Shown piece by piece: positions 10,235 through 64,000 of a DNA stretch of 64,000 nucleotides. Positions within the stretch are counted from its first letter, which is position 1. Every line of letters begins with the position of its first letter. Origin of the DNA: Candidatus Falkowbacteria bacterium. GTDB lineage: Bacteria > Patescibacteriota > Patescibacteriia > CAIXNZ01. The notes under the pieces were generated by a model. It saw nothing but the letters and a program-made list of their open reading frames with translations. It searched no databases and had not been told where the DNA came from. The stretch lies in assembly GCA_016927685.1 (NCBI GenBank), contig JAFGMD010000024.1, positions 7,314 to 71,313 on the forward strand, in the 5' to 3' direction. The position numbers were made by a program, and so were the translations under genes.

Positions 10235-10283
10235 CCCGCCGAAGGCGGGTCCGCCTCTGGCGAAAACCCATCATCCGCAACAT

Positions 10284-10357
10284 TCGGGCTGGTGGGACTT
10301 GAACCCACGATCTTCTGGTCCCAAACCAGACGCGATAGCCAACTTCGCTACAGCCCG
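10284..10357 (-). tRNA. tRNA-Pro(TGG): tRNA-Pro (anticodon UGG)
   Basis: Revcomp reads CGGGCTGTAGCGAAGTTGGCTATCGCGTCTGGTTTGGGACCAGAAGATCGTGGGTTCAAGTCCCACCAGCCCGA, with a cloverleaf and anticodon loop TTTGGGA. Confidence 0.85.
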
Positions 10358-10434
10358 ATGCACAACAAGAGATATGATTAATAAGCAAGAGTATCTTTTA
10401 CTGTTGCTACAACTCAAATCTCATTACTGATTAG

Positions 10435-10507
10435 TGCCAAGGGGGAGAATCGGACTCCCGACGCAAGGATTTTCAGTCCTTCGCTCTACCACTGAGCTAC
10501 CTTGGCT
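10435..10507 (-). tRNA. tRNA-Phe(GAA): tRNA-Phe (anticodon GAA)
   Basis: Revcomp reads GCCAAGGTAGCTCAGTGGTAGAGCGAAGGACTGAAAATCCTTGCGTCGGGAGTCCGATTCTCCCCCTTGGCA, anticodon loop CTGAAAA. Confidence 0.85.
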
Positions 10508-10512
10508 TAAAT

Positions 10513-10552
10513 AGTGGGCGTGGATGGAATCGAACCATCGACCTCGTCATTA
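10513..10552 (-). repeat. Partial duplicate (3' half, ~40 nt) of tRNA-Ile
   Basis: 35 nt identical (gcgtggatggaatcgaaccatcgacctcgtcatta) to 10577-10611 inside the intact tRNA-Ile. No D-arm or 5' acceptor, so not a functional tRNA. Confidence 0.7.
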
Positions 10553-10573
10553 CCTGCCCCGCACTAAATCATG

Positions 10574-10647
10574 TGCGCGTGGATGGAATCGAACCATCGA
10601 CCTCGTCATTATCAGTGACGCGCTCTAACCATCTGAGCTACACGCGC
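10574..10647 (-). tRNA. tRNA-Ile(GAT): tRNA-Ile (anticodon GAU)
   Basis: Revcomp reads GCGCGTGTAGCTCAGATGGTTAGAGCGCGTCACTGATAATGACGAGGTCGATGGTTCGATTCCATCCACGCGCA, anticodon loop CTGATAA. Confidence 0.85.
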
Positions 10648-10674
10648 ATGTATTTGATCGAAAAATTTAGAATT

Positions 10675-10871
10675 TTAGTGCGGGGTCAGTGACCGACCCC
10701 AAATTTTTAAAGCAGTGACCCCGCACCAATGCTTCGCATTGTGCGGGGCGCAGCGCGCTCTAACCCGCCTCGACGAGCTGACTCGTCTCAGCTCGCTTGG
10801 GCGAAGCACAGCGAGGGGGACATCTGCCTGCCCGCCGAAGCACAAAGTGCATAGGCGGGAGCTATACACCC
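10675..10871 (-). ncRNA. GC-rich highly structured spacer between the 16S 3' end and tRNA-Ile, starting with a tRNA-Ala-like 5' fragment (GGGTGTATAGCTC)
   Basis: ~60% GC versus a ~30% background. It has multiple 6-14-bp inverted repeats (cccgcc/ggcggg; gagctga/tcagctc; ccccgcac/gtgcgggg; ggggtc/gacccc; and gtgcggggtcactg twice in inverted orientation, which allows alternative foldings). No ORF with an RBS. Confidence 0.45.
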
Positions 10872-10974
10872 AAAAACCATATCAATAAGAGCATTATAAC
10901 AAAAAAAATCGGCTTAATCAAGATCTAATTGATATTAAATAAGCCGATTTTTTTTAAATTGCATCTTCAACCGC

Positions 10975-10992
10975 TAAAAAGTGATAGAATCA
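10975..10992 (-). promoter_or_regulatory. 16S rRNA trailer half of the leader/trailer processing stem (probable RNase III site)
   Basis: ctaaaaagtgatagaatc is the exact reverse complement of gattctatcactttttag at 12617-12634 in the 16S leader. Confidence 0.7.
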
Positions 10993-11065
10993 AAATCCAA
11001 AAATTTGTTTCGTTAGAAACAACCGACCGAATAGAGCGGACTTTCGTCGCGCTCATATACTCCTT

Positions 11066-12559
<1,494 letters not shown>

Positions 12560-12616
12560 AAATAAAATGGTGATAAGGTTCACCATAACAACCTTCCCCA
12601 GTTGGGGAAATAAGGA

Positions 12617-12634
12617 ATTGATTCTATCACTTTT
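12617..12634 (-). promoter_or_regulatory. 16S rRNA leader half of the processing stem
   Basis: Perfect 18-nt complement to 10975-10992. Confidence 0.7.
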
Positions 12635-12822
12635 TAGTTGTCAAAGAAGAAAAAACAGGGAAATCCATTGTCTCCAAAATTATACCTGAGTATTTTTTAG
12701 AGATCGAATTTCTCTGTTTTTTCTCCTCCCCATCGGAGCTGTTGCAAAGATGGGATATCTTTGAAAAATTAAATTTTTATTGTCTTTTTTGAGAACTTAG
12801 TAAAGTTATTTTTGATACTAGC

Positions 12823-12851
12823 ATTATAAACTTTATTATTTAAGCTGTCAA
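12823..12851 (-). promoter_or_regulatory. Consensus sigma70 rRNA promoter (TTGACA-17-TATAAT)
   Basis: Minus-strand TTGACA (12846-12851), 17-nt spacer, TATAAT (12823-12828), ~260 nt upstream of the mature 16S 5' end. Confidence 0.7.
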
Positions 12852-12894
12852 GAGGATTGACCTGTTATCTATATACAGCTTTTACACAATAAAC

Positions 12895-13539
12895 TCACGA
12901 CATTTTTTTGCGTTTCTCTCGCCATTCTCTAATTTTCCCGTGGTGACCGGATAAAAGAATCCTTGGCACTTTCCAGCCCTTAAAATTTTCCGGCTTTGTA
13001 TATTGAGGATATTCTAATTCTTTTTCTTTACTAAATGATTCGTCTTTTGGTGATTCTAAATTACCAAGTACGCCCGGCAATAGGCGAGTAATCCCGTCAA
13101 TCAAAACCATAGCTGGGATTTCACCGCCAGTTAGCACATAATTGCCAATGGAAATTTCTTCGTCTGCTATTTTTTCTGCTACGCGATTATCAACTCCTTC
13201 GTAACGACCGCAAATCATGATCAGCTGGTCATATTTTTTTAGCCGTCTCAAATCTTTTTGCGTCAGCGTTTTGCCGTGTGCGGAAAATAAAATAACTCGG
13301 CTCTTCTTTTTTCTTTTTATGCTTTTAAGCGCCTTGAAAATCGGCTCGATTTTTAAAATCATGCCAGCGCCGCCGCCATAAGGCGTGTCATCAACTGATT
13401 TATATTTATTACCTGCATAATGGCGTAAGTCAGTTATTTTAATCTGAATTAATTTCTTCAACTGCGCCCGTTTAACCATGGCCTTGGCAAAATATGAGTC
13501 AAAGATATCAGGGAAGATTGTAATGATGTTGAATAACAT
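12895..13539 (-). CDS. trmD: tRNA (guanine37-N1)-methyltransferase
   Basis: MLFNIITIFPDIF...TPYGGGAGMILK...GRYEGVDNRV...ISIGNYVLTGGEIPAMVLIDGITRL carries TrmD SPOUT-knot motifs. Confidence 0.9.
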   Translation of the reverse strand: MLFNIITIFPDIFDSYFAKAMVKRAQLKKLIQIKITDLRHYAGNKYKSVDDTPYGGGAGMILKIEPIFKALKSIKRKKKSRVILFSAHGKTLTQKDLRRLKKYDQLIMICGRYEGVDNRVAEKIADEEISIGNYVLTGGEIPAMVLIDGITRLLPGVLGNLESPKDESFSKEKELEYPQYTKPENFKGWKVPRILLSGHHGKIREWREKRKKMS

Positions 13540-13577
13540 TGGGATATGAAATAAGTAATACGAAATAAGAATTGGTA

Positions 13578-13949
13578 TTATTTATTTTTAATTGTGATTT
13601 TTATTAAATTATTTAATTTTGCATTCAAAAAGTCGAGTTTATTTATTAAATCGCTTTGGTCTTTTTCTGATAAAATTTCACGTTCATACAATAAATTTGT
13701 CCAATGTTTGGATTCAAACAAAGAAGCTCTAGCATTATAATAAAATTTCGCTTTATCTAAAAAATGATAACGACCGTATCCCTCAGCCACATTGGCGCCA
13801 ATTGAATCCACGGCAGTGATATATTGGCGGCCAAAAATATATTTCATTTCTGAATTTAAAGAATTATAAATATTCCATATTGATCTGGATAATTCTCTGG
13901 CGATTTGATAAACCTCTAAATCTTCTAATTTTAAATATTTATTTTCCAT
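13578..13949 (-). CDS. Four-helix-bundle protein (23S rRNA intervening-sequence protein family, TIGR02436-like)
   Basis: 123 aa starting MENKYLKLEDLEVYQIARELSRSIWNIY... with ...ITAVDSIGANVAEGYGRY...; matches the family pattern in size and motifs. Confidence 0.55.
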   Translation of the reverse strand: MENKYLKLEDLEVYQIARELSRSIWNIYNSLNSEMKYIFGRQYITAVDSIGANVAEGYGRYHFLDKAKFYYNARASLFESKHWTNLLYEREILSEKDQSDLINKLDFLNAKLNNLIKITIKNK

Positions 13950-37220: not shown

Positions 37221-38825
37221 ATGGAGATAAAGAATATATATACTAAAATAAAAGAACTGATTGAAAGGAATCAGTTCGTTTTGTATTTAGTTATTTTTAT
37301 TATTGTATTATTTACTTATTTATGGGTTCAATCAAGCCCGACCTTTTTAGATCCAGATTCATATTATCATTTGAAAATATCTAGGCTTATATATGAAAAT
37401 AGAGGCCCAATAATAAATTTTCCCTGGCTTCAATTCACGGTTTTAAAAAATTATTATATTGATCATCATTTTTTATACCATGTTTTAGCCGTCCCCTTCA
37501 TTTTGCTATTTGGCGATTTCCCTGGTTTTAAATTTTTTACTGTTATTCTAGCAACGGCTTTCGTATTACTTTCCTACACTTTTTTTAAGCGCTATAAATT
37601 AATATATCCTGAAATTTTTATTTTAACATTACTATTTGCCCCGGCACTTCTTTTTAGGATATCGCTAGCTAAAGCAAGCGCCTTTTCACTTTTAATTTTG
37701 TTTTTCGGGATTTACTGCCTTTTTAAAAGATATTATTACCTGTTATTTTTATTATCATTTTTTTATGTTTGGTCTTATGGTGGTTTTTTATTAATTTTGG
37801 GCGTAACAGGAATTTATGTTTTATCTGAAGCCGTTAATAAAATGATAAAAAGAAACCTAGCTAAAAGTTATAACCATAATTTAATCTTTTTATTTAAACA
37901 TATTTTTAATATTGAAAATTTGAAACTAGTATTTGCCTCTGCCACGGGGATTATCTGCGGTTTGATTATAAACCCTTATTTTCCCAAAAACCTTTTATTT
38001 TATTGGCAACAAATTGTGCAAATTGGCTTAGTTAATTATCGTAAAGTAGTTAATGTGGGTGGGGAATGGTACCCATATAATATTTCTAATTTATTACCAG
38101 ATAGTGGCGTTATTATTATTTTTGCCGCCCTTGCCCTAGTTTTATTTTTCATTTTTCACAAAAAGCAAAAAACCGAAAGTATTTTTTTTCTAATTTTAAG
38201 CATACTTTTTTTTATATTGACCCTTAAATCCAAGCGCTATGTTGAATATTTTATTCCTTTTTTAGTTTATTTTTCAGCTTTTTCATTAACACATAGCCTG
38301 CAAGGCATTAATATAGCAGAATATTTTAAAAAAATAAAAAAAGAAAGCGCAAGATTGGGCAAAATTATTTTTATTACAATTATTTATTTAGCGATTATTA
38401 TACCCACGATATTCATCAAAGATATTATTGAGATACATAAATCCTTTGAGGGCGGAATAAAATTCACGCGTTTTAGCGGTATAGCAACATATTTAAAAAA
38501 TAATAGCGCAAAAGGCGATATTATAATGCATACTTCTTGGGATGATTTTCCAATGCTATTTTATCAAAATGATAAAAATTATTATATTGTCGGCTTAGAC
38601 CCCACTTTTATGTATAAATACAATCCGAACCTTTATGAATCATATGCTGATATTACTATGGCAAAAAAATCAGATAATCTTTACCAGGAGATAAAAAACA
38701 ACTTCCGGGCAAGCTATTTTATTGTTAATAAAGGGCGTGATCAATTGGAGCGCAATTTGATCTTAGATGATAATTTTAGTAAAGTTTATGAAGATAATGA
38801 CGCTAAAATATTTAAGTTAAAATAA
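37221..38825 (+). CDS. Polytopic membrane protein (~13 TM), possible GT-C-type glycosyltransferase (ArnT/PMT-like)
   Basis: Many TM helices; early loop DPDSYYH resembles a GT-C DxD/loop motif; adjacent to a GT2 DPM-synthase-like gene. Confidence 0.45.
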   Translation: MEIKNIYTKIKELIERNQFVLYLVIFIIVLFTYLWVQSSPTFLDPDSYYHLKISRLIYENRGPIINFPWLQFTVLKNYYIDHHFLYHVLAVPFILLFGDFPGFKFFTVILATAFVLLSYTFFKRYKLIYPEIFILTLLFAPALLFRISLAKASAFSLLILFFGIYCLFKRYYYLLFLLSFFYVWSYGGFLLILGVTGIYVLSEAVNKMIKRNLAKSYNHNLIFLFKHIFNIENLKLVFASATGIICGLIINPYFPKNLLFYWQQIVQIGLVNYRKVVNVGGEWYPYNISNLLPDSGVIIIFAALALVLFFIFHKKQKTESIFFLILSILFFILTLKSKRYVEYFIPFLVYFSAFSLTHSLQGINIAEYFKKIKKESARLGKIIFITIIYLAIIIPTIFIKDIIEIHKSFEGGIKFTRFSGIATYLKNNSAKGDIIMHTSWDDFPMLFYQNDKNYYIVGLDPTFMYKYNPNLYESYADITMAKKSDNLYQEIKNNFRASYFIVNKGRDQLERNLILDDNFSKVYEDNDAKIFKLK

Positions 38826-41585: not shown

Positions 41586-42122
41586 ATGAAAAAGTATCTG
41601 GTGTTGGCATTTGTGGCTTTTCTGGCGGTCAATTGTGCGACTAAAAAGTCAAGCGTGTACCGTACCGAGATCAAGAGGCCAGGCGTGGTTTTGTCAACTA
41701 ATGACGTTGATATCGCAACCGAGGTTGCTAACCACAACAACAATTACGCGACTCTGCCGCCAAGTATTGACGAGGCCTTGAAGGTCAACCCGCATGCTTA
41801 TGTCAAAGTTGACGCAAATGGCGTGACCTACTATGGCGAGTCTGCCAGCGGTGGGTATATGCAGGGCATCTGGGAGAATTATACTAATTCTCCTCTAGAG
41901 GTGACCATTTTCCAGCAAAATGAGCAGATAGCTCAATTCATGGTCCCGCCAAAGAAGTATACCCGCCTTGCTTTGCTCCCCGGGTCTTATCAATCAGTTG
42001 TCAAGGCTGGTAGAGAGGTTGTCCGTTCGGAATTCCTACTCAGCCCGATCAAAGGGCGAGCCTATTCATCATTAGCTAAGGAATGGTGCGATTTTACTCA
42101 ATACAATCGCACCAAAGATTAA
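41586..42122 (+). CDS. Hypothetical secreted protein on a GC-rich islet
   Basis: RBS ataggagg; signal peptide MKKYLVLAFVAFLAVNCA; GC clearly higher than the neighbours. Confidence 0.55.
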   Translation: MKKYLVLAFVAFLAVNCATKKSSVYRTEIKRPGVVLSTNDVDIATEVANHNNNYATLPPSIDEALKVNPHAYVKVDANGVTYYGESASGGYMQGIWENYTNSPLEVTIFQQNEQIAQFMVPPKKYTRLALLPGSYQSVVKAGREVVRSEFLLSPIKGRAYSSLAKEWCDFTQYNRTKD

Positions 42123-42140
42123 TAAGCATTCAAAAAATAA

Positions 42141-42172
42141 CGAGGCTGTTGTTATGACAGCCTCGTTTTTAT
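42141..42172. terminator. Bidirectional intrinsic terminator
   Basis: acgaggctgt tgttatg acagcctcgt + TTTTT. Confidence 0.7.
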
Positions 42173-42189: not shown

Positions 42190-42615
42190 TTAGGGCGTTG
42201 TTCCGCCTTGTTCAATTCCATTGCCGCCAGGAGCAAAAATTCCGCCCTGTGAAGAGTTTATAATTACATAAAAGACAAAATTAGTAATAGCATAAGCAGA
42301 AATTATAATAACTAAGCCGATTATTGCGTAATAAATTATGTTTTTCCCTTTTTTCACCGCATCTTCCTTCCCTTGGGCTGTCATATATATAAAGCCGCCA
42401 TATATTATTAAAATAACAGCAGCAATCCCCAAAATGGTCAGGGCAGTTCTTATTAAAACAGCAGCAATTTGCTGCGGCGAAGTATAACTGCCGCCATATA
42501 CCTGTTGGCCAAAGCTATTTACATTTTCGCTGATACTAAAAGCGCCTGCTAGATTTGGCAATAAACAAAGAGAAATTAATATTAAGTAAAATAATTTGTA
42601 TAAATTTTTGTTCAT
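42190..42615 (-). CDS. Pilin-like two-helix membrane protein, paralog 1 (VirB2/TrbC-like topology)
   Basis: Signal/TM, then conserved core ILGIAAVILIIYGGFIYMTAQGKEDAVKKGKNIIYYAIIGLVIIISAYAITNF, then a Gly-rich tail. Confidence 0.6.
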   Translation of the reverse strand: MNKNLYKLFYLILISLCLLPNLAGAFSISENVNSFGQQVYGGSYTSPQQIAAVLIRTALTILGIAAVILIIYGGFIYMTAQGKEDAVKKGKNIIYYAIIGLVIIISAYAITNFVFYVIINSSQGGIFAPGGNGIEQGGTTP

Positions 42616-42636
42616 AAAAATTATTATTATAAACTA

Positions 42637-43197
42637 TTATATTGGCGGGTTTTCTGGGGCAGTCGGCGTTTGCGGCTGGTCTATTGTGTGCGTACAACCA
42701 CAGCCCGTTGCACAGCATGATTGGCTGCAACATTCTAGCTCCCCCTGATTGCGATAACTGCAGCAATAACAAGAAAAGTAATCTCTATCTTCTGGATTTT
42801 CGCATCTTTCTGTAAAAGGAGGAGGAGTAGCGCCTGGTTGCTCTAAATTTTTGGCAACAAAATAAGTAATAGAATAACCTGAAATAATAATTACCAGGCC
42901 AACTACAGCCGTAGTGATTGTTTTTTTACCGCTACTAACCTTTTTTTCATCACCCTGTGAAGTTAAATATAAATATCCTCCGTATATTAATAATATTGTA
43001 AAGATAATGCCAATGAGGGTAAAGGCCACTTTAATGATGCTTGCTGCGTATTGTTGCGGCGTTGTGGTTTCCCCATAGCCAACTTGAGTAGCAGTGCTAG
43101 TAAGCCCTTGCAGGAATTTTGAGGCCTGAATTTCTTGGCAGGACAATAAAATTCCTAAACTAATAACGATTATTAAAATGATAATTTTTTTGTTCAT
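42637..43197 (-). CDS. Pilin-like paralog 2 with an extremely Cys-rich C-terminal tail
   Basis: Core LIGIIFTILLIYGGYLYLTSQGDEKKVSSGKKTITTAVVGLVIIISGYSITYF, and tail CENPEDRDYFSCYCCSYRNQGELECCSQSCCATGCGCTHT (14 Cys in ~40 aa). Confidence 0.6.
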   Translation of the reverse strand: MNKKIIILIIVISLGILLSCQEIQASKFLQGLTSTATQVGYGETTTPQQYAASIIKVAFTLIGIIFTILLIYGGYLYLTSQGDEKKVSSGKKTITTAVVGLVIIISGYSITYFVAKNLEQPGATPPPFTERCENPEDRDYFSCYCCSYRNQGELECCSQSCCATGCGCTHTIDQPQTPTAPENPPI

Positions 43198-43601
43198 ATT
43201 TGTACTTCTATTGACGGCTCAGTTGTTTCTTGTGGTTCAAGGAGGGAAGCCACAAAATACGAAATTGAATAAGCAGTTACAATGATGGCCAAGCCAATTA
43301 TTGCGCTAATTATTATTTTTTTCGCCTTATTGACATTTTCCTCATTTCCTCTGGCTGTCATCCAGACATAGCCTCCATAAATAACTAGAATAAAAAATAC
43401 TACTCCAACTAGGCCTAAAATTGCTTGTATGATCCTGACTACAATTTCAGTCCACCCTATGCCAGTTTCTAAGCCTGCTTCGCCGGCTGATGTATTAATA
43501 TATTGACCTGAATTTTGAATATTCAAGGCCAGGCAGGGGAGCGCTGACATGCCAAGGAGAACTATTAGTAAAAATATTATAAAAGTAATTTTTTTTCGCA
43601 T
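43194..43601 (-). CDS. Pilin-like paralog 3
   Basis: Core ILGLVGVVFFILVIYGGYVWMTARGNEENVNKAKKIIISAIIGLAIIVTAYSISYF; 4-nt overlap with paralog 2. Confidence 0.6.
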   Translation of the reverse strand: MRKKITFIIFLLIVLLGMSALPCLALNIQNSGQYINTSAGEAGLETGIGWTEIVVRIIQAILGLVGVVFFILVIYGGYVWMTARGNEENVNKAKKIIISAIIGLAIIVTAYSISYFVASLLEPQETTEPSIEVQI

Positions 43602-43609
43602 AGTAATGA

Positions 43610-44026
43610 TTAAATTTGATAAATTTGGTCCGAGTCCTGTTCTGGCGTTTCCGGTTCAATGGCCGAGGAAATAAAATATGTTATTGAATAAGCCGCTGCC
43701 ACTATTAATAAGCCTATTACAGCGTAAATAATAATTTTTTTAGCTTTTTGAACTTTTTCTGTAGTCCCTGCCGCAGTCATATATAAAAAACCTCCATAGA
43801 TAATTAATACTACAAACATGGCACCAACAAGACCCAAAAATAAGTTAATTACCATCGCTACTACTTCGGCAAACTCCGCTTTTTGCAAACCTGTTTCGGT
43901 TTGTGTCTGCTGGGTAAATTCATTAATATTTTGCAAGCTATAGGCATTGAGCAGAGAAGCAGAAAATAAAAAAATACCAAACAGAATGGTTGTTAAAAGA
44001 AAAAATTTTAAATATTTACTAGGCAT
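43610..44026 (-). CDS. Pilin-like paralog 4
   Basis: Core FLGLVGAMFVVLIIYGGFLYMTAAGTTEKVQKAKKIIIYAVIGLLIVAAAYSITYF. Confidence 0.6.
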   Translation of the reverse strand: MPSKYLKFFLLTTILFGIFLFSASLLNAYSLQNINEFTQQTQTETGLQKAEFAEVVAMVINLFLGLVGAMFVVLIIYGGFLYMTAAGTTEKVQKAKKIIIYAVIGLLIVAAAYSITYFISSAIEPETPEQDSDQIYQI

Positions 44027-44039
44027 GTTTAAGATTTAT

Positions 44040-44414
44040 TTATTGCCCGCCAACTGCCTGAAAAATAAGTGCTGTTATGGCATATGCGGCCCCCAGAACA
44101 ATAGCGCCGATAATTGACCACTTAATTACCTCCTTGCCCTTATCGACTTTTTTAGAATCACCAGCCGCACTCATTATTAAAATTCCGCCGTATACCATTA
44201 AAAATAAGAAAAGCGAACCAGCAATGGCCAAGGCAGCGCCGGCAATGCGGCCCAGAAATACTGGTGCATCAATCATAAGGCTTTCGCCTAGCCCTGCCTC
44301 TTTAGCCGTGGTTGATAAACCATGATCTCCTTGAGCAGAAACAGTATTAGCGCCATAAATAGAAAATAATAAAATAAAAATTTTTGTAATACTTGTTATA
44401 TATTTTTTAATCAT
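44040..44414 (-). CDS. Pilin-like paralog 5 (C-terminus ends GGQ)
   Basis: Core LAIAGSLFLFLMVYGGILIMSAAGDSKKVDKGKEVIKWSIIGAIVLGAAYAITAL. Confidence 0.6.
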   Translation of the reverse strand: MIKKYITSITKIFILLFSIYGANTVSAQGDHGLSTTAKEAGLGESLMIDAPVFLGRIAGAALAIAGSLFLFLMVYGGILIMSAAGDSKKVDKGKEVIKWSIIGAIVLGAAYAITALIFQAVGGQ

Positions 44415-44426
44415 ATTGACTATTAA

Positions 44427-44460
44427 ATATTAAGGGCAGACGATTGCCTGCCCTTAATAT
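44427..44460 (-). terminator. Strong hairpin between paralogs 6 and 5 (possible internal terminator/attenuator)
   Basis: 13-bp perfect inverted repeat atattaagggcag / ctgcccttaatat with an 8-nt loop; the downstream U-run is weak (aauauuu). Confidence 0.4.
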
Positions 44461-44467
44461 TCCTTAA

Positions 44468-44842
44468 TTACTGTTGAGATGTCGCATTAATAATATTGGT
44501 CAAAACGAAATTGGCAATGGCATATGCCGATAAGATAATCACAAGACCTATTACGCCCTGAAAGATAAGCTTCTTTGCAGTTTTTACGTTTTCTTCATTA
44601 CCCATGGCAGTCATCCATTTAAAGCCGCCTACTAATATGATAACCACGGCAACTACGCCTAAAAGGCCCATGGCCACATTAATTATTGTGGCAATAGTTG
44701 TTCTGATGTCGCCTGTGGGTAAACCGGTTGAAGTAACATAGCTTAAGCCCACATCTAAAGTTGTTTGCGCTGCGACTAATTCTGGCAAAAGAATTAGGGC
44801 TAAAAGTCCTAATATCATGCCAATTTTCATCCCTTTTTTCAT
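44468..44842 (-). CDS. Pilin-like paralog 6
   Basis: Core AMGLLGVVAVVIILVGGFKWMTAMGNEENVKTAKKLIFQGVIGLVIILSAYAIANF. Confidence 0.6.
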   Translation of the reverse strand: MKKGMKIGMILGLLALILLPELVAAQTTLDVGLSYVTSTGLPTGDIRTTIATIINVAMGLLGVVAVVIILVGGFKWMTAMGNEENVKTAKKLIFQGVIGLVIILSAYAIANFVLTNIINATSQQ

Positions 44843-45000
44843 AATTGGATCCTTCTTAGCTTAGTTAATTCACTAAGCAATAAGATTAATTATTTAAATA
44901 TATTTATCCGTTTAAAAGCGGTTTTTAAAAAAACATTATCTTTATAATATTATACTATTTTAGCTTTCAAACCGCAATATTTAAATATTTTTTATTATAT

Positions 45001-45372
45001 TTATGTGCCACTCTGTGTAATACCCGTTATAATATAATTTACAAAAATATAGCTGCCAAATATTATTAAAAGTCCGATTACAGACCAAATTAGTATGTCT
45101 TTGCCCTTTTTAACCATATCTGGGTTGCCATGGGAAGTCAGCATAAACATGCCGCCATAGATAAACATAATAAAGGCAATTGAGCCAACTATAGCCAAAA
45201 CAGCTTTTATGATTCGCCCTATTAATTTTTGCACTCCGGCCTCTCCCGGCTCAAGCTTAATAGGCGAAATATCACTAATACTTACTTGACCTAATGCGGG
45301 AATATAATTAAGAAATATTCCTATAGTGGCCAATAATATTGTTATTAAGATAAGAAATCTAATTTTTTTCAT
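45001..45372 (-). CDS. Pilin-like paralog 7
   Basis: Core VLAIVGSIAFIMFIYGGMFMLTSHGNPDMVKKGKDILIWSVIGLLIIFGSYIFVNY. Confidence 0.6.
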   Translation of the reverse strand: MKKIRFLILITILLATIGIFLNYIPALGQVSISDISPIKLEPGEAGVQKLIGRIIKAVLAIVGSIAFIMFIYGGMFMLTSHGNPDMVKKGKDILIWSVIGLLIIFGSYIFVNYIITGITQSGT

Positions 45373-45388
45373 AAAAATTTATATTAAT

Positions 45389-45853
45389 TTATTTACATTC
45401 TCCGGTTTGGACGTCACATTTTTTGCCCGCTGGGCAATTAGCATCGCTTTTACACGGGCAGATGAGCTTTGATTCAATCCATTGCTGGGGGTCTGAAATT
45501 TCACCGCCTGAAACAACAACCAATATAAAGGCAATAATAAAATATGCCAAAAAAATAATGGCCATCCCAATTAAGGCATTAATTATTATATCTTTACCCT
45601 TTTTAACTTGATTTGGGTTACCACCAGAAATCAGCATTGTAAAACCGCCATAAATAAAATATAGCAGCAACAAACTTCCAACTATAGCTAAAATGAATTT
45701 GCCAATATTTATCGCCACATTGACCATATCACAAAGTGTGCAATCTCCAGTCGCAGTGCAAGGTGGTAAGATTTGGGCATTTGCGCATTTTATTCCAAAA
45801 AACAATATAAAAATTATTACGAATAAGCTGAGGATGTATTTTTTGTTTAACAT
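45389..45853 (-). CDS. Pilin-like paralog 8 with Cys-rich N- and C-terminal exposed segments
   Basis: Core ILAIVGSLLLLYFIYGGFTMLISGGNPNQVKKGKDIIINALIGMAIIFLAYFIIAF; N-terminal CTATGDCTLCD and C-terminal CPCKSDANCPAGKKCDVQTGECK. Confidence 0.6.
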   Translation of the reverse strand: MLNKKYILSLFVIIFILFFGIKCANAQILPPCTATGDCTLCDMVNVAINIGKFILAIVGSLLLLYFIYGGFTMLISGGNPNQVKKGKDIIINALIGMAIIFLAYFIIAFILVVVSGGEISDPQQWIESKLICPCKSDANCPAGKKCDVQTGECK

Positions 45854-45858
45854 ATAAT

Positions 45859-47223
45859 CTATTTATAGGTTTGATTAATTTTTTGCACTGCCAGAGAGAC
45901 AATTTCATTGGTTTTTAATATGCCCTCTAAATTACCAGATATCATTTCTTCTAAAATTTTATCGCTTGCCTCTGCATCTTTGCCTTTATACCAGCTCCTT
46001 GACGTAAGAATCTGGTCAGCGAATGGTGCTAATTCCAAATCATCTGTCTGTGTAATTATCAAATTTCTTAGAGCTATAGGTAATCGTGATTTTTGCAAAT
46101 ATGTTTTATTCATTTCTTCATTCGTTGTCATAAATATTATAAAATCCCACGCCTCATTTTGATTTTTACTTTTTTTAGATACTGTCTCTGTCCAGTAATT
46201 CGCAAAATTTATTGGCGTACCCACTTGAGGCATTTTCGCAATTTCAAAATTTAATTTTGGAGCACGCGCTTTAATAGTAGAAAGATTATAAGCATAACCA
46301 AAGAAAAAGGCTGTTTTACCGCTCATAAAGCTTTCCAATGAATTTGGCAAATTTTCATTCCAAGTATAAGATTGTGTCGCTGGAGAGGCAAAGCCATTAT
46401 AAAAGTTTAAAGCTTCAGCAGCTGGGGGGAGCTCTCTTTGATAGCCAGTTGGCTTTTGGTTAAATGTTGCATAACCATTAGAATCTGTCATGGGGGTACC
46501 ATTTTGCATCATGAGCAAGCTGATTATATCAGGAGAGCGCGCAACATTAGTGGCCGTTCCAATGGCCGCTCCTGATTGGATAATATTGCCTTTTGAATCT
46601 TGCTTTGTTAATTTAATGACGTCTTCTCTGAATTCATCCCAGTTAGTCGGCGGATTAGAAATACCAGCATTATTCAATAGGTCCCGATTATAATATAAGG
46701 CTAATGTATCAATACTTAACGGTAGGCCGTAAATTTGATCATTAATGACCTGATTATCGTAAATAACATCAGGAAATAGAGCTTTAACATCTCTTAGTGT
46801 TAAAGTTTTTTTTGTGCGCATTTCAGTATAAGTTTCTTTCTTGATGGTACCCTTAGTTACTTGATATGCAATTGTTACAGTCGCTGGTAAGGGAGAGATA
46901 AGACTTTGATATTCCCTCATCCAAGTAGTATTAATTGAAAAAATATCAGGGCCTCTATCTTCTGCTAAAGCACGCACTAATTGTTTTTCGTATTCATCAT
47001 AAGTAAAGTTTCTGTAATTAATAACAATATGCGGATGCTCTTTCTGATAGGCACTTATTAAATCCTGGACATCTGAACTTTCCTCAAATACTTTCCAGTA
47101 TTCAAGAGTAACTGGTTGTGGTTTGCCTAAAGTTAAACCAGCGGGCGGTCCTCCGCATTTGAAGCCACTAGTAACCAATAAAGCAGCTAGTAAGAAAAAA
47201 ATTATTATTTTGGTTGTTTTCAT
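45859..47223 (-). CDS. Extracellular solute-binding protein (sugar ABC transporter SBP family 1-like); likely start at internal Met (MKTTKIII...)
   Basis: Signal peptide after the internal start, ~450-aa periplasmic-binding-protein-like body. No permease or ATPase genes adjacent (orphan SBP). Confidence 0.6.
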   Translation of the reverse strand: MKTTKIIIFFLLAALLVTSGFKCGGPPAGLTLGKPQPVTLEYWKVFEESSDVQDLISAYQKEHPHIVINYRNFTYDEYEKQLVRALAEDRGPDIFSINTTWMREYQSLISPLPATVTIAYQVTKGTIKKETYTEMRTKKTLTLRDVKALFPDVIYDNQVINDQIYGLPLSIDTLALYYNRDLLNNAGISNPPTNWDEFREDVIKLTKQDSKGNIIQSGAAIGTATNVARSPDIISLLMMQNGTPMTDSNGYATFNQKPTGYQRELPPAAEALNFYNGFASPATQSYTWNENLPNSLESFMSGKTAFFFGYAYNLSTIKARAPKLNFEIAKMPQVGTPINFANYWTETVSKKSKNQNEAWDFIIFMTTNEEMNKTYLQKSRLPIALRNLIITQTDDLELAPFADQILTSRSWYKGKDAEASDKILEEMISGNLEGILKTNEIVSLAVQKINQTYK

Positions 47224-47227
47224 ATTT

Positions 47228-48094
47228 TTATTTAAGCTGTTTAAGATATTTTTTAAAGTCAATCGCTAAATCTTTGCGTTGCAGCGCCAAATCAACGTTA
47301 GCTTTAAGCCAGCCGATTTTTGAACCAGCATCATAATATTTGCCATCTACCAGACAGGCATAGATAGGTCTTTTTTTGGATAAATTAAAGATAGCATCAA
47401 CTAACCATAATTCTCCGCCTTGCCCTATTTTTGTGCTAGCCAATGTCTCGAATATATCTGGTGTTAAGATATAGCCTCCTAATACGCCAATGCGACTCGG
47501 TGCTTTTTCCGGCCCGGGTTTTTCTACTAGTTTTTTTATTTGATAAATATTTTTTTCTATTTTTACGCCATCAATCACGCCATACTTTTTAGTCCCCTCA
47601 TCATCAATGGCCATGGCAGTTAGAACAGGATCGCCATATTTATAATAAACATCCATTAGCTGTTTTAATCTGTTTTTTTTGGGACTGATAAAAAATTCAT
47701 CTCCCCAGATAACAGCAAATGGTTCGTTGCCAATTACTTTTGCGGCATTAAGCACTGGTGTGCCATTGCCATAAGGCCCCTTTTGTCTAATATAAATAAA
47801 ATTTGCCAAATCTGCTATTTTTTTTATTTCCTGCCGCAATCCTTCCTTACCTTGTTTTTTTAACCAATTTTGTAATTCATAATTATAATCAAAGTGATCT
47901 TCAATAGCCCTTTTTGATGCCCCGGTTACCAGAATAATATCCTCTATGCCCGATTCAACCGCCTCCTCTACGATATATTGTATAACAGGCTTATCAATAA
48001 TTGGCAGCATTTCTTTTGGCATGGCTTTGGTAGCCGGTAAAAAACGAGTGCCAAAGCCTGCTACTGGGATAACTGCTTTTTTAATTTTTGACAT
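47228..48094 (-). CDS. galU: UTP--glucose-1-phosphate uridylyltransferase
   Basis: MSKIKKAVIPVAGFGTRFLPATKAMPKEMLPIIDKPVIQYIVEEAVESGIEDIILVTG; probable start at the internal Met (ORF-track start 48178 is likely too long). Confidence 0.85.
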   Translation of the reverse strand: MSKIKKAVIPVAGFGTRFLPATKAMPKEMLPIIDKPVIQYIVEEAVESGIEDIILVTGASKRAIEDHFDYNYELQNWLKKQGKEGLRQEIKKIADLANFIYIRQKGPYGNGTPVLNAAKVIGNEPFAVIWGDEFFISPKKNRLKQLMDVYYKYGDPVLTAMAIDDEGTKKYGVIDGVKIEKNIYQIKKLVEKPGPEKAPSRIGVLGGYILTPDIFETLASTKIGQGGELWLVDAIFNLSKKRPIYACLVDGKYYDAGSKIGWLKANVDLALQRKDLAIDFKKYLKQLK

Positions 48095-59827: not shown

Positions 59828-60041
59828 ATCATGTAAAATCAGTTTACTACAATTAATAAAAAAAATCAAGAGCTCTTTACTTTTAGATGTCTGTACTTTG
59901 TGGAATTTATTGGAGCATTTCTATTTAGATTTATAATATGAAATTAGCAAAATTAATTGAATAATTTTCCACAATTCATCCACTTGCTCAATTTTTTAAA
60001 TAAGATAAAATTGAACCAAGAATATTTATTTTATTCATTTT

Positions 60042-60674
60042 GTGAAGAATCGTTGGAAAATTTTTTTGGGGGCGGTAATTATCATTACTGCTTTTTTATT
60101 TGCAGATTATAGTTGGGCAAAAACGATTATTTCGGTAAATGAAAATTTAAATTATAAGATAACCGTTCGTATTGTTTTTGATTTTAGGGACGACGAGGCA
60201 TTAAAATATTCTGATGAATTGTTAGTTAGATGGAAAGAAGGTATGAATATTATTTGGAATAATAATTCAAGCGATGATATTGGCAAAATCTTTTACGAAT
60301 TTGATTTAATAAAAAAAGAATCGTGTAAAACTTGCGCAGATTATCCAGAATATCATTGCATAAGCGTAATAAGCGATAAAAGAAATCAAAGAGGAAATAT
60401 TGCAGATGTTACTTTTAATTTTCCTAATTCTGGTTTGAATAGCGATGGGGAGTGGTCAATATATGCTTCAGATAAAGTTGCCGCACATGAAGTCGGTCAT
60501 TTGATGGGATTATTAGACGAATATCACTATGAATATATTAATGGTGAAAAAAAATGGGTTAATGATAATAACAAAGAATCAGAACAACAAAGCATAATGG
60601 CACAAACATGGGGTACGGTTACTGTTTTTAGCGATCAAATTAATAAAATTTTAAAAAGTGCAGGTATTGTATAA
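60042..60674 (+). CDS. Secreted zinc metalloprotease (HExxHxxGxxD zincin, snapalysin/metzincin-like)
   Basis: N-terminal signal/TM (GTG start); motif AAHEVGHLMGLLDEYH. Confidence 0.6.
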   Translation: MKNRWKIFLGAVIIITAFLFADYSWAKTIISVNENLNYKITVRIVFDFRDDEALKYSDELLVRWKEGMNIIWNNNSSDDIGKIFYEFDLIKKESCKTCADYPEYHCISVISDKRNQRGNIADVTFNFPNSGLNSDGEWSIYASDKVAAHEVGHLMGLLDEYHYEYINGEKKWVNDNNKESEQQSIMAQTWGTVTVFSDQINKILKSAGIV

Positions 60675-60691
60675 TATTTTTTATAAGAAAA

Positions 60692-60716
60692 GGGAGTCCG
60701 AACGGACTCCCTTTTG
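60692..60716. terminator. Bidirectional intrinsic terminator at the edge of the GC-rich island
   Basis: gggagtccg aac ggactccc + TTTT. Confidence 0.7.
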
Positions 60717-60718
60717 TG

Positions 60719-61183
60719 TTAAACGATTTTTTCGAAAAACACTTTTTTCGGTTGGCTTTGGTCGAGTCGAGCCATGAAGATTTCAATGTTGTTGGCGGCT
60801 GGGACATATTTTTTAAAAAGTTCAACCGCTTTTTTTAAGTCATTGATCTGGTGCTCGCTGATACTGATTTTTTTGCAGACCAAGTTATGGATCTTGCCAT
60901 ACATCTGGCAGTCATCGTGATTGATAATGATCAGGCGCGGTTGCTTGGCATGCTTGAGCATGAATTCGATTTGGTCCTTGAGCGTCTTGAGGTGTTTGGG
61001 TGCAAAAAGTTCGGCGCCGACCGAGCTGACACTGCCAGGAACGACAATGTAAGCCGGGTGCTGAATTTTCAGCTCGTTTTTAACAAAGGACTTGAAGGCC
61101 TCTTGAAAGCGCGGGTCTGAGCAATGGACAATTATTGCATCGGCTCCGCTTGCTTCAAGTAGCGGATAGAAAATTTTCTCCAT
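60719..61183 (-). CDS. Hypothetical protein on the GC-rich island (weak beta-carbonic-anhydrase-like Cys/His motifs)
   Basis: HCSDPRF and NHDDC loosely resemble beta-CA zinc-ligand motifs (low confidence); GC ~50%. Confidence 0.5.
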   Translation of the reverse strand: MEKIFYPLLEASGADAIIVHCSDPRFQEAFKSFVKNELKIQHPAYIVVPGSVSSVGAELFAPKHLKTLKDQIEFMLKHAKQPRLIIINHDDCQMYGKIHNLVCKKISISEHQINDLKKAVELFKKYVPAANNIEIFMARLDQSQPKKVFFEKIV

Positions 61184-61245
61184 TTTGCCTCCTTTAAAAA
61201 AGAAAGGGAGGAGGCTGGGCCTCCTCCCTTGTTAGTGGTTAATGG

Positions 61246-62874
61246 TTATTTCTTCTTGGGTTCGTCAGCCTTGGGCCTTGAACCGTCTTCGGTCTTGGCC
61301 GGCTGGCCGGTTTTGTCTCCGACAGCTTCCTTGCTCATGGCTGCCAGCTTGTTGCCGAGCAGTTCACTCGCTTTTTTCAGGATTTCGGTCGGATCGACCA
61401 GGCCGCTGGCTTTGAGCTGCTGCACAAAGTCAAAGAACATTTTGGGAACGATGGAGGCCACACGGTTCATCGCTCCGTCTCCGCCGCTGCCAGTGTCCCA
61501 GACAGTGAGGTTGTCGATGCTGCCGAGTGAAGAGGCTAGTGAGGAGAATATTTTTTCGGCAACTTCGCCGCCTGCTTCGCCAATGGCTTTAATGACTTCG
61601 GGTGATTTTTCCATGAGGAAGAGCAGTTGGCCGGCCTGATTCAGTTTGGTCAGGGCCTCGGCCAGTTTTTCCTTGCCTTCGGCTTCGGCCAGTAGCTGGG
61701 CCTTGGTGCCATCGGCGATGGCGACCAACTTGGCCTTTTCCGCGTCTGCGGCTGCTTGGCCTTGTTGCCTGATTTTGGCAGCATCGCCTTCGGCTTCCAG
61801 AACAGCTGCACTCTTTTTGGCCTCGGCCAATTTGATCGCGGCCTGCGCTTCACCATCGGCCTTGAGAATGGCCGCCTGTCGTTGTGCTTCGGCATTGATG
61901 ACTGCGGCTTTTTGGTTTGCCTCGGCTTCTCTGATGGTCGTGGCTTCCAACTGTTTTTGCCGACGAGCCGCTTCTTTTTCCTGGACCAAAGTAGCGCCTT
62001 CGGTCTCAGCCGCAAGAGTGGCCTGCTCAGCAGTTTTCACGTCCTTTTCAGCCAAGGCCTTGGCTTTGGGCCCTGCCTGGGCAGCCAATGCTTCCTGGGC
62101 CTGAACTTCTGCCGCGTAAGCGGCCTTTTTGACTGACAGGTTTTTGTTGGCTTCGGCGATTTTTCTTTCGTTTTCGGCCGCAATCTCCGCTGCCTCTCTC
62201 ATGGCTTCAGATGTCTTTTTCTTGGCTTCGGCTTCGGCCTGGGCTTTGCCGATGGCCGCGTCACGCTGGACTTCGGCGGTTCTCTTTTGGCCCAGGGCGT
62301 TCAAATAGTTGTGAGCGTCGGAGATGCTTTTGATGCCGATAGAATCGGCATCCAAGCCCATTTTCTGCAGATCCACCAGGGACTCGCTGGTTATCTTTTC
62401 GGCAAAGGTTTTACGATCCGAGTTGAGTTCTTCAATAGTCATGGTGCCGACAATGGCGCGCAAATGCGCTTCCAAAGTCTGCAGAGCCGTGTTTTGGATT
62501 TCCTGAGGCCTGCCCAGGAATCGTTCAACGGCGTTGATTACTGAGGTATCATCGCTCTTGATCTTGATATTGGCGATCGCATCAATGCTGACTGGCACGC
62601 CGTCTTTGTTGTAGGCGTCAGTGACTCTGACATCGATCGTCATCAATTCCAGGCTCAGGTATTGGGTCTGTTCGATGATAGGCCAGACAAAGGTAGCACC
62701 GCCGCGAACAATCCTGTAGCCGACCTCCTTGTCTCCCAGTTTGCGTTTGCGTCCAGTGATGATAGCCACCTTATCTGGCGGAACCTTGATGTAGCGTTTG
62801 GACCACACCAGAAAACCGCCAACAAAGGCGAGTGCCAGAACGACAATAATGACTGGAATAATGAACGCTCCCAT
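61246..62874 (-). CDS. Flotillin-like SPFH/band-7 protein (YqiK/FloT-like) with a long Ala/Glu/Lys-rich coiled coil
   Basis: N-terminal TM, SPFH domain (KVPPDKVAIITGRK...VTDAYNKDGVPVSIDAIANIKI), ~250-aa EA-rich coiled coil, C-terminal region. Confidence 0.85.
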   Translation of the reverse strand: MGAFIIPVIIVVLALAFVGGFLVWSKRYIKVPPDKVAIITGRKRKLGDKEVGYRIVRGGATFVWPIIEQTQYLSLELMTIDVRVTDAYNKDGVPVSIDAIANIKIKSDDTSVINAVERFLGRPQEIQNTALQTLEAHLRAIVGTMTIEELNSDRKTFAEKITSESLVDLQKMGLDADSIGIKSISDAHNYLNALGQKRTAEVQRDAAIGKAQAEAEAKKKTSEAMREAAEIAAENERKIAEANKNLSVKKAAYAAEVQAQEALAAQAGPKAKALAEKDVKTAEQATLAAETEGATLVQEKEAARRQKQLEATTIREAEANQKAAVINAEAQRQAAILKADGEAQAAIKLAEAKKSAAVLEAEGDAAKIRQQGQAAADAEKAKLVAIADGTKAQLLAEAEGKEKLAEALTKLNQAGQLLFLMEKSPEVIKAIGEAGGEVAEKIFSSLASSLGSIDNLTVWDTGSGGDGAMNRVASIVPKMFFDFVQQLKASGLVDPTEILKKASELLGNKLAAMSKEAVGDKTGQPAKTEDGSRPKADEPKKK

Positions 62875-62897
62875 TTTTTCTCCTCCTTCTTTTCGGG

Positions 62898-63539
62898 TTA
62901 ATTTTGGCCTAGACGCGTGACTATCACGGTCTGCCCCATGGCCTTGGTGACTTTGACAGTGTTGCCTTCCAGAATTTCAGATCCGTCCTCGGATTGGGCC
63001 AGGTAAGTGATGGTGCCGGTATGAGTGGTGGCCTGAATTTGGCCGGCTTCGTTTTTCGGAATTTTCACAATAACCATAACTTCCTTGCCCACAAGATCAT
63101 TGGCCGAGATGTTAGCAGAGGCCTGTTGCTTGGCCAAAAAGTTGACAAAGGCATACATAAGAACGGCCATAAGAAAACCGGCCAGAATGCCAATTCCGCT
63201 TGAGGCAAATACGCCCATTTTTAAATAGCTGCAGATTGCACCGACCAGGCCAAAGCCTGCGACAAATGACATTATGATTCTGAATGAAAAGAAGCCGGGT
63301 GCGCGTAAGCCGGCCATATCCGTATGGTCGCCTCCCGAGTCTGGATGATCGGCTCCATGGTCGACGTGCAGGTCATGATCGGGATGATCAAAATCATGAT
63401 CAATGCCGAACGCGTCTCCTAATTCTCCAAGAAAGAGAGAAAAGAGACTGATACCTGCGGCGACCAATCCAATGGTCAAAAATACGCCAAAGGTGAATAT
63501 TTTGTCAAGGTGCGCTAAAAGTCCGGTAAGCCATTCCAT
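62898..63539 (-). CDS. NfeD-like membrane protein (YqiJ/YuaF-like flotillin partner) with a His/Asp-rich loop
   Basis: TM helices, DHDFDHPDHDLHVDHGADHPDSGGDH loop and a C-terminal OB-fold-like beta domain; sits immediately upstream of the flotillin gene. Confidence 0.75.
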   Translation of the reverse strand: MEWLTGLLAHLDKIFTFGVFLTIGLVAAGISLFSLFLGELGDAFGIDHDFDHPDHDLHVDHGADHPDSGGDHTDMAGLRAPGFFSFRIIMSFVAGFGLVGAICSYLKMGVFASSGIGILAGFLMAVLMYAFVNFLAKQQASANISANDLVGKEVMVIVKIPKNEAGQIQATTHTGTITYLAQSEDGSEILEGNTVKVTKAMGQTVIVTRLGQN

Positions 63540-63764
63540 TTTCTACCTCCTTTTTTTTATTCATTTTTCCTTTTTTTGCCACAATTACAACAAATTTCGC
63601 CTCCTTTCAAAACATTAAAATTTTGTTAACCGAACACTTTAACTTAACATAACTGTCCTATTATGTCAAGGTTTATAGGTATTTATTGTAAAAATCTTGA
63701 CAACATTTTTTAATCCTGTTAAACTACTCCATATTTCACAAATAAAAAGGAGGGATAGTAGTAA

Positions 63765-64000
63765 TGTCCGACAGTCAATTTGTTGACGGCGAGATGTATT
63801 TTGTTCTTTTGGATACCCTGACTGAGATTGAAGAAGAAATTCGCAGTAATGGCCACAGTAATGTGGAAAAAGCGCGTCTTTTCCATCAATTAGGTAGTAT
63901 TTACGGATTGATGGGAGAGATGAACCAGCAGAAATTTTCATGGCAAAAGGCGGTGGAACTAGATCCCCAATCAAAAATTTTCCAGCAAAGCCTGGCAAGT
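63765..64000 (+). CDS. Partial CDS (runs off the window end), hypothetical
   Basis: RBS aaaaaggaggg 8 nt before ATG 63765; translation MSDSQFVDGEMYFVLLDTLTEIEEEIRSNGHSNVEKARLFHQLGSIYGLMGEMNQQKFSWQKAVELDPQSKIFQQSLAS... is open to the window end. Confidence 0.45.

Follow-up and report, generated by a model that had tools for sequence, protein, structure and literature searches.

The chromosome of a Candidatus Falkowbacteria bacterium, a member of the Patescibacteria or candidate phyla radiation (CPR), contains an array of eight pilin genes, two of which, paralog 2 and paralog 8, encode proteins with cysteine (Cys)-rich ends. The array lies in a 64-kb piece of the chromosome, referred to here as the window, in which all unassigned positions below are counted. 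The preferred reading, to which we assign a probability of about 0.55, is that these are decorated pilins, whose outward-facing modules are disulfide-bonded and make contact with the envelope of a host or partner cell. The ends of paralogs 2 and 8 are quite probably disulfide-rich and extracytoplasmic. A role of their modules in adhesion, judged from the sequence, is conceivable at somewhat less than an even chance. The analysis combines homology, topology logic, conservation of the Cys framework, the even-number rule for Cys residues and the pattern of array positions (slots) across genomes; from these we infer disulfide bonds, assembly into a pilus, surface display and a binding function.

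The eight closely packed, co-directional genes have 123-186 codons each, occupy positions 42190-45853 of the minus strand, and are about 15 kb away from dnaA. An earlier note on this DNA recognized them as homologues of VirB2-type pilins, and the Pfam model of type IV secretion system (T4SS) pilins, PF18895 (T4SS_pilin, VirB2-like), agrees: all eight score above its gathering threshold (32.9-42.9 bits against a cutoff of 26.6). Several also match TrbC/VirB2 models of Pfam below threshold. Paralog 6 exceeds the cutoff of the NCBIfam model NF045849 (41.9 against 40 bits), which describes the "pilin-like conjugal transfer protein" (Mbov_0395 family) of integrative and conjugative elements (ICEs) of Mycoplasma, whereas paralog 2 remains below it (33.6 bits). 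The identity of the other paralogs in the window to paralog 2 is 27-39%. A profile built from the eight paralogs did not match any PDB sequence.

Each paralog starts with a hydrophobic signal sequence with an AxA-type cleavage site, and hydropathy places two hydrophobic helices after it. The loop between the helices of paralogs 2-8 contains three to five Lys or Arg residues and is net positive, and the N-terminal segments and tails are net acidic. In paralog 2, the loop has four Lys/Arg and two Asp/Glu residues, and the tail has three and ten, respectively. Both termini of the array pilins are predicted to be outside the cell, because a signal peptide is present and the positive-inside rule puts the basic loop in the cytoplasm; the outward orientation proposed in the earlier note is in line with these features. 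An outside location also fits a paralog 8-class relative from outside the window (P0017), which carries a peptidoglycan-binding domain, PG_binding_1 (PF01471), on the same C-terminus. The exposed end of a pilin can, as P0017 illustrates, host ordinary binding domains besides Cys-rich knots. In solved conjugative pili such as the F-pilus, the pilin termini point outward from the fibre, and the loop faces its lumen. The idea that the Cys-rich ends are pilus tips is not supported by these structures, in which the termini are borne along the whole outer surface of the fibre.

Paralog 2 is a 186-residue VirB2-like pilin precursor (42637..43197, minus strand; PF18895 score 32.9 bits) with a 69-residue C-terminal extension; its coordinates and open reading frame (ORF) were correct as first described. 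The signal peptide comprises residues 1-25 (43123..43197, minus strand), as indicated by the hydrophobic N-terminus and an AxA-type site with cleavage in the context IQA/SKF. The hydropathy profile places the helical hairpin core in residues 50-117 (42847..43050, minus strand), where transmembrane helix 1 (TM1) is followed by the Lys-rich loop SQGDEKKVSSGKKTIT and TM2. A Pro-rich linker leads to the Cys-rich module, residues 132-168 (42694..42804, minus strand), in which 10 of the 37 residues are Cys, arranged in the pattern C-x10-C-x-CC-x9-CC-x3-CC-x3-C-x-C. The module also contains four aromatic residues and a single His that is not conserved. The Pro/Thr-rich C-terminal end THTIDQPQTPTAPENPPI (42640..42693, minus strand) is variable or absent among orthologues. 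The 40 tail residues quoted in the earlier note (132-171) are exact, but they contain 10 Cys rather than the 14 reported there. The precursor has 11 Cys, the eleventh of which, C20, is in the signal peptide. C20, in the context LLSC, was considered as a lipoprotein Cys and ruled out: it is not kept among orthologues, and the ASKF cleavage context is invariant across five of them.

The Cys content of the tails stands out from that of the surrounding genes. Cys makes up 0.66% of the residues in 52 other ORFs of the window; at that rate, the binomial probability of the 10 Cys among the 37 residues of the paralog 2 module is 4.5e-14. When 40-residue stretches are ranked by Cys density across the 60 non-overlapping ORFs of the 64 kb that encode at least 100 residues, the tails of paralogs 2 and 8 take the first two places. 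Searches with the tail of paralog 2 did not connect it to a known domain. Pfam gave nothing at E<=1 for ten Cys-rich tails from the window and related arrays, the search of PDB sequences returned only weak zinc-finger matches that are not significant (E = 0.3-3), and phmmer, run against 1.84 billion representative proteins, found no true relative of the tail of paralog 2. Four phmmer matches to FG-GAP repeat proteins were rejected as spurious, as they align to the PPxFTER motif of the linker and not to the Cys module. No RNA family was found in the region.

Ten orthologues of paralog 2, with identities of 41-78%, were collected by searching databases, metagenomes and genomes; scans of genomes and metagenomes for further orthologous arrays yielded few loci (four and five, respectively). 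Wherever the context is known, the array is syntenic and the orthologue is its second-last pilin; a solute-binding protein (SBP) gene borders such arrays at one end, and a small lipoprotein-like gene and DUF2079 border them at the other. The hairpin core of paralog 2 (residues 50-117) is 56-90% identical to those of the orthologues. In the tail, the identity of non-Cys residues is 19-67%, and 5-10 of the 10 Cys positions are kept. The framework common to the orthologues is C-x12-CC-x9-15-CC-x5-8-C, to which some lineages have added further Cys; in P0002 the CC-x9-CC unit is duplicated. The Cys counts of the eleven orthologous tails are 6, 8, 8, 8, 8, 10, 10, 10, 10, 12 and 14, all of them even.

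The paralog 2 tail appears to evolve faster than the core and yet under purifying selection, because the ratio of nonsynonymous to synonymous substitution rates (dN/dS) in the closest pair of orthologues is about 0.24 for the tail and 0.06 for the core. This measure is rough, with synonymous sites at or near saturation: the closest pair, the only usable one, has a dS of about 1-1.5, and for most other pairs dS could not be calculated. The hypervariability of this tail for which the earlier note proposed a dN/dS check was thus not borne out, as every orthologue carries the same module under purifying selection. An explanation of the tail as a frameshift, mis-assembly or low-complexity artefact had nothing in its favour and is refuted; its probability is vanishingly small. 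The paralog 2 protein is identical to the NCBI Candidatus Falkowbacteria protein JW977_03515, and the identical protein is encoded by an independent Logan assembly of the run SRR13394437. Furthermore, the DNA of the tail contains no tandem repeat, the eleven orthologues share the reading frame and keep the Cys framework, and the dN/dS of 0.24 indicates constraint.

The earlier note left open whether the tails are disulfide-rich or bind metal, as metallothioneins do. In a profile search, 49 of 105 further family members had Cys in the mature protein, and automatic counting gave an even number in 44 of the 49 (binomial P = 3.8e-9). Manual inspection of the five odd counts attributed four to Cys residues in the signal peptide or embedded in the membrane; one remains odd. 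The mature forms of paralog 2 and paralog 8 contain 10 and 8 Cys, respectively, both even. An excess of even Cys numbers among exported proteins is accepted as a sign that disulfides form (PMC2823432). On the basis of sequence, the formation of disulfides by the tail Cys is strongly favoured over metal binding, because the Cys counts are even and residues are gained and lost in pairs.

Metal binding outside the cell, in a metallothionein- or zinc-ribbon-like manner, is the weaker reading and very unlikely. It draws on the CC and CxC motifs and the Cys content of 27%, on the zinc-finger proteins that head the weak and non-significant PDB matches of the paralog 2 tail (E = 0.3-3), and on the general expectation that an anoxic habitat would keep thiols reduced. 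However, Cys numbers among the paralog 2 orthologues shift only by two, and counts such as 6, 10 and 14 are not multiples of four and misfit Cys4 sites. The even-number pattern extends across the family (44 of 49), the 37-residue module holds four aromatics and its single His is not conserved, and there is no match to a metallothionein or zinc-finger family at E<=1. Metallothioneins share with the tails a high Cys density and the CC and CxC motifs; they differ in being cytoplasmic and aromatic-poor and in following no even-number rule, whereas the tails of paralogs 2 and 8 are predicted to be extracytoplasmic, include aromatics and have even counts. The disulfide-rich alternative of the earlier note is favoured on these grounds, and the metallothionein or metal-binding one fits poorly.

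The Cys framework of paralog 2 does not correspond to a familiar small-protein class. Knottins have six Cys in the order C-C-CC-C-C, and hydrophobins have eight in the order C-CC-C-C-CC-C; the framework of paralog 2 is C-x12-CC-x9-15-CC-x5-8-C, its minimal orthologue has six Cys in the order C-CC-CC-C, and Pfam detects no hydrophobin match. The module resembles beta-defensins, knottins, hydrophobins and conotoxins in its conserved Cys framework, fast-evolving loops, CC pairs, even Cys number and small size. Unlike these disulfide-rich mini-proteins, its framework of C-CC-CC-C with added pairs has no family or structure match, and we know of no standard disulfide framework that it fits.

Paralog 8 is a 154-residue VirB2-like pilin precursor encoded by the first gene of the array (45389..45853, minus strand; PF18895 score 35.6 bits). 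It has Cys at both ends, exactly as first described: the segment CTATGDCTLCD after the signal peptide, with C32, C38 and C41, and the C-terminal CPCKSDANCPAGKKCDVQTGECK. The N-terminal C-x5-C-x2-C motif (45731..45760, minus strand) is located just before TM1 and is kept in six relatives (P0013-15, L002_1, L010_1 and L017_1, where L numbers denote loci and P numbers proteins from outside the window). The C-terminal segment (45395..45460, minus strand) contains C132, C134, C140, C146 and C153, of which C132 occupies a conserved L-x-C position about 15-18 residues past TM2. Paralog 8 and these relatives combine three N-terminal Cys with an odd number at the C-terminus: five in the window and in P0013-15, one in L010_1 and L017_1, and 19 in L002_1. 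Five other relatives (P0016, P0017, P0019, P0093 and P0117) lack the third N-terminal Cys and have an even Cys count at each end. Full pairing of the Cys in paralog 8 and the relatives with three N-terminal Cys, where both counts are odd, would require one or more disulfides between an N-terminal and a C-terminal segment, which could belong to a single subunit or to neighbouring ones. The AlphaFold2 model of paralog 8 has a predicted local distance difference test (pLDDT) score of 71.5 overall and of 80-88 in the hairpin core. Its top Foldseek match in the PDB is the conjugation pilus of Aeropyrum pernix, 8dfu (probability 0.80, target-normalised TM-score 0.67, E = 2.4).

Reciprocal best hits between core regions were used to match slots among six arrays, in all of which four of the eight slots are plain. 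Slots 1, 3, 5 and 6 have no mature Cys and no module, either in the window or in any other array. In the window, these slots are occupied by paralog 1, a plain pilin with a Gly-rich tail encoded by the last gene of the array (42190..42615); paralog 3, Cys-free across all syntenic arrays, the stop codon of which overlaps the start of paralog 2 (43194..43601); paralog 5, Cys-free across all arrays (44040..44414); and paralog 6, the most canonical of the eight, with the best TrbC/VirB2 Pfam score (44468..44842), all on the minus strand. Slot 2 has 10 C-terminal Cys in the window and the same module with 8-12 Cys in the other syntenic arrays. Slot 8 has three N-terminal and five C-terminal Cys in the window, 3+1 in L017 and 3+19 in L002. 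The two remaining slots have no module in the window. In slot 4 (paralog 4, 43610..44026, minus strand) six C-terminal Cys are present in L007 and L006 and 12 in L018, and in slot 7 (paralog 7, 45001..45372, minus strand) there are six Cys in L017, 16 in L018, and 14 N-terminal plus 16 C-terminal Cys in L002. The six paralogs 1 and 3-7 thus lack Cys in the mature protein, consistent with the earlier description of their tails as Cys-free; the signal peptides of paralogs 1 and 3 contain one Cys each, and paralogs 4-7 are devoid of Cys. The notion of diverse tails on one pilin scaffold, advanced before, therefore holds for the gain, loss and swapping of modules in slots 4, 7 and 8, but not for variability of the paralog 2 tail itself.

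Many of the other modules are made up of a recurrent six-Cys unit, C-x6-12-C-x3-6-C-x10-17-C-x4-7-CC, often followed by K/Q-P. Scanning 145 proteins with a regular expression in which the first gap was <=10 revealed 14 copies, spread over 10 of the proteins; the number expected on the basis of shuffled sequences was 0.07. The unit occurs in one to three copies on the N- or C-termini of other CPR pilins and is absent from the window. Its carriers are encoded at L002 4598-6681 and 8789-9577 and at L017 7618-8202, or are the proteins P0018, P0020, P0034, P0037, P0038, P0059 and P0084. The best PDB matches of a profile of the unit are proteins with the beta-defensin fold, namely a tick carboxypeptidase inhibitor and beta-defensins, but they are not significant (E = 0.1-5). 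Beta-defensin-like spacing is confined to this separate module of other CPR pilins.

These matches, together with the Pro-rich linker before the paralog 2 module, are what might suggest that the tails are precursors of released Cys-rich peptides, such as defensin-like toxins or ribosomally made modified peptides. This explanation is hardly credible, as no gene for a modification enzyme, protease or exporter adjoins the array, no leader-core architecture is evident, and all orthologues have the module as part of a conserved membrane pilin. In a separate observation, six family members from outside the window (P0007, P0008, P0025, P0026, P0084 and P0124) contain two full pilin hairpins per polypeptide, with four TM helices, and are fused tandem pilins.

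In the preferred reading, each pilin would be exported by a Sec signal peptide and would sit in the membrane as a helical hairpin, with the Lys-rich loop towards the cytoplasm and both termini outward. Slots 1, 3, 5 and 6 would provide plain scaffold pilins, and the other four would be decoration slots with optional Cys-rich modules. The 10-Cys C-terminal module of slot 2 may be read as five intramodule disulfides, and the 3+5 Cys of slot 8 as four, of which at least one would link the N- to the C-terminal segment, probably through C132, and two would lie in a terminal four-Cys knot (C134, C140, C146 and C153). Disulfides would give short sequences without a hydrophobic core a stable extracellular fold. 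Should the pilins, like their relatives, build a T4SS pilus, the modules would be dotted over the outside of the fibre. Their most likely role would be specific contact with the envelope of a host or partner cell, and the set of paralogs together with module swapping could supply differing specificities.

The disulfides could instead be purely structural, stabilising or cross-linking subunits within or between chains, with no ligand to bind. The N-to-C bond in the paralog 8 class could equally join neighbouring subunits, L017_1 and L010_1 have only 3+1 Cys and no extra module, and the paralog 2 tail is under purifying selection, all of which would suit such staples. We nevertheless consider this explanation unlikely, since modules can be 60-200 residues long and contain as many as 30 Cys (L002_1, L002_2), far beyond the needs of a staple, four slots manage without Cys, and the swapping, gain and loss of modules among close genomes is typical of interaction surfaces.

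Several observations weigh against decorated T4SS pilins that contact other cells. The similarity of the paralog 8 model to 8dfu is not significant, and the fold is very simple. The AlphaFold2 model of paralog 2, computed from a five-sequence alignment, has a pLDDT of 49.8 overall and of 35-49 in the tail, and provides no fold that would support a knot. The dN/dS of the paralog 2 tail is below 1 in the closest pair, with no sign of diversifying selection. A Pfam search of the 59 largest ORFs of the 64-kb window, in which VirB4, VirB6, VirB3/PrgI and TrsD were sought, revealed no VirB4, VirB6, VirD4 or other T4SS component, and the conserved neighbours of the array are cell-envelope genes (amidase, SpoIID, PBP1A, flippase, GT2, DUF2079, GalU and SBP). 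Nor did Pfam and a CxxC motif search of real genes find a gene for DsbA, DsbB, VKOR or a thioredoxin-like protein in the window. Many CPR bacteria are anaerobic, and the formation of extracellular disulfides is less assured without oxygen. Lastly, no pilus has yet been observed in any Patescibacterium (PMC12857230).

The genomic surroundings bring in a further alternative, in which there is no T4SS pilus and the proteins are two-helix membrane anchors that present small ectodomains for envelope biogenesis or architecture, independently of a T4SS. It is a rival to be taken in earnest, because T4SS machinery is missing from the 64 kb and the neighbours are conserved cell-envelope genes, although its probability is low. 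The array belongs to a conserved cell-wall and polysaccharide block of about 20 kb, the gene order of which is common to window positions 32351-54089 and to positions 1-20504 of L017, a 193-kb contig of another Patescibacterium: SpoIID, flippase, Amidase_2, GalU, SBP, the eight pilins, lipoprotein, DUF2079, GT2, a 534-residue protein, methyltransferase, YebC, RuvC and PBP1A. The apparent co-transcription of the array with an orphan SBP gene and the lack of an observed pilus in Patescibacteria (PMC12857230) would also accord with surface anchors. However, all eight paralogs pass the T4SS_pilin model, and a published survey has many pilin genes away from virB4 (813 of 1,948 assemblies, compared with 1,135 of 1,948 in which they are near it; PMC12102498). 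The only array tested, that of Southlakia epibionticum, is essential and located in a T4SS cluster (Wang et al. 2023, PMC10633639).

A more elaborate version of the decorated-pilin reading is speculative, and we regard it as doubtful. There would be two subunit classes, an invariant scaffold and display subunits with interchangeable modules, the latter being determinants of host recognition or attack whose swapping sets the host range. The module types would comprise the paralog 2 module, the four-Cys knot, the beta-defensin-like six-Cys module and the peptidoglycan-binding domain, and the N-to-C disulfide of the paralog 8 class would make its hairpin ring-like.

The pilin array and the protein family are already known, and such arrays have been proposed to link these very small bacteria to their hosts. 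Published arrays of VirB2-like pilins in Patescibacteria have 2-11 genes with an average paralog identity of 25% (Quinonero-Coronel et al. 2025, PMC12102498). The array described here resembles them in its PF18895 match, its tandem genes (eight), the low identity of its paralogs and its chromosomal position near dnaA, but it is not beside virB4 and sits in a conserved cell-envelope block. Undescribed in the literature searched, as far as we found, are the disulfide-rich terminal modules, the distinction between plain and decorated slots, and the putative N-to-C bond: we found no mention of Cys-rich or disulfide-bonded pilin termini in PMC12102498 or PMC10633639, and a non-exhaustive literature search for Patescibacteria, pilin and cysteine-rich together returned nothing.

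Among better-characterized pilins, VirB2, TraA and TrbC of Gram-negative T4SSs and archaeal CedA1, the protein of the pilus 8dfu that is the best, non-significant fold match of paralog 8 (E = 2.4), share with the array the signal peptide, two-helix hairpin, basic loop and small size. Canonical pilins lack additional domains and have virtually no Cys-rich ends, VirB2 being a bare two-helix hairpin, whereas the pilin extensions in the window are 40-70 residues long and those of relatives reach about 190; sequence similarity to solved pilins is not detectable. The NF045849 protein of Mycoplasma ICEs is likewise a VirB2-like protein of the monoderm type, but it is a single gene on a mobile element rather than part of a chromosomal array, and paralogs 2 and 8 score below its cutoff. 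The tandem virB2 paralogs of Bartonella and Anaplasma are cited in the published survey as amplified and divergent, and as proposed to vary the exposed surface (PMC12102498). These show point divergence of a small pilin, whereas here whole disulfide-rich modules are added or removed. The putative N-to-C bond of the paralog 8 class would tie the termini together on the outer face, similar to the reported head-to-tail cyclisation of T-pilin and RP4 TrbC. The latter is a peptide bond, whereas the paralog 8 staple would be a disulfide deduced from Cys counts only. The cyclisation of T-pilin has been disputed on the basis of cryo-EM (PMC9905601).

Host recognition and attachment by CPR bacteria are little understood: the T4SS and pilin array are essential in the one species tested, and no adhesin has been found; in particular, the published survey did not detect a PrgB-like adhesin (PMC12102498). 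If the preferred reading is true, swappable disulfide-rich pilin ends would represent a novel route to binding specificity in a T4SS fibre, and the modules, which are short enough for chemical synthesis, would be concrete candidates for determinants of host range. The even-number rule would imply that presumed anaerobic fermenters with minimal genomes fold proteins oxidatively outside the cell, and the question then arises of which enzyme catalyses this.

The array is bounded downstream of paralog 1 by a strong bidirectional hairpin terminator of 13 pairs and a T run (42139..42167, no strand assigned). Directly upstream is the orphan SBP gene (SBP_bac_1/SBP_bac_8; 45859..47262, minus strand), which ends 5 nt before paralog 8 on the same strand and keeps its place upstream of the array in all syntenic loci (L001, L002 and L017). 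A GalU-like gene is also directly upstream on the minus strand, and the eight pilin genes are probably co-transcribed with these two genes. No gene for an ABC permease or ATPase adjoins the SBP gene, so that the partner of the SBP may be the pilin array instead of a transporter. An ORF for a 178-residue lipoprotein-like protein (41586-42122, plus strand) converges on the end of the array. It has a counterpart of 172-204 residues at the same place in every syntenic locus and no Pfam or NCBIfam match. The ORF for the 534-residue protein of the conserved block (37221-38825, plus strand) is kept between GT2 and the methyltransferase in L005 and L017, also with no Pfam or NCBIfam match.

Farther from the array, 37 kb away, a small lytic transglycosylase-like ORF (5160-5738, minus strand) matches SLT and SLT_3 (PF18896); enzymes of this kind serve as VirB1 in T4SSs. 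An FtsK gene (7592-9895) is located near it. The window also contains dnaA-dnaN, six tRNA genes and a 16S rRNA gene (11068-12565). The latter is followed by four of the tRNA genes (Ile, Phe, Pro and Gly) within the region 10007-13949, and no 23S rRNA was found in the 64 kb. Beside this cluster is a gene (13578-13949) that encodes a "23S rRNA-intervening sequence protein" (PF05635). The G+C content is 0.44-0.47 at positions 60001-64000, compared with 0.30-0.40 across most other parts of the window, and the sole other peak, of 0.49, is over the 16S rRNA gene. The G+C-rich segment at 60001-64000 spans a flotillin/NfeD gene pair and includes several overlapping shadow ORFs.

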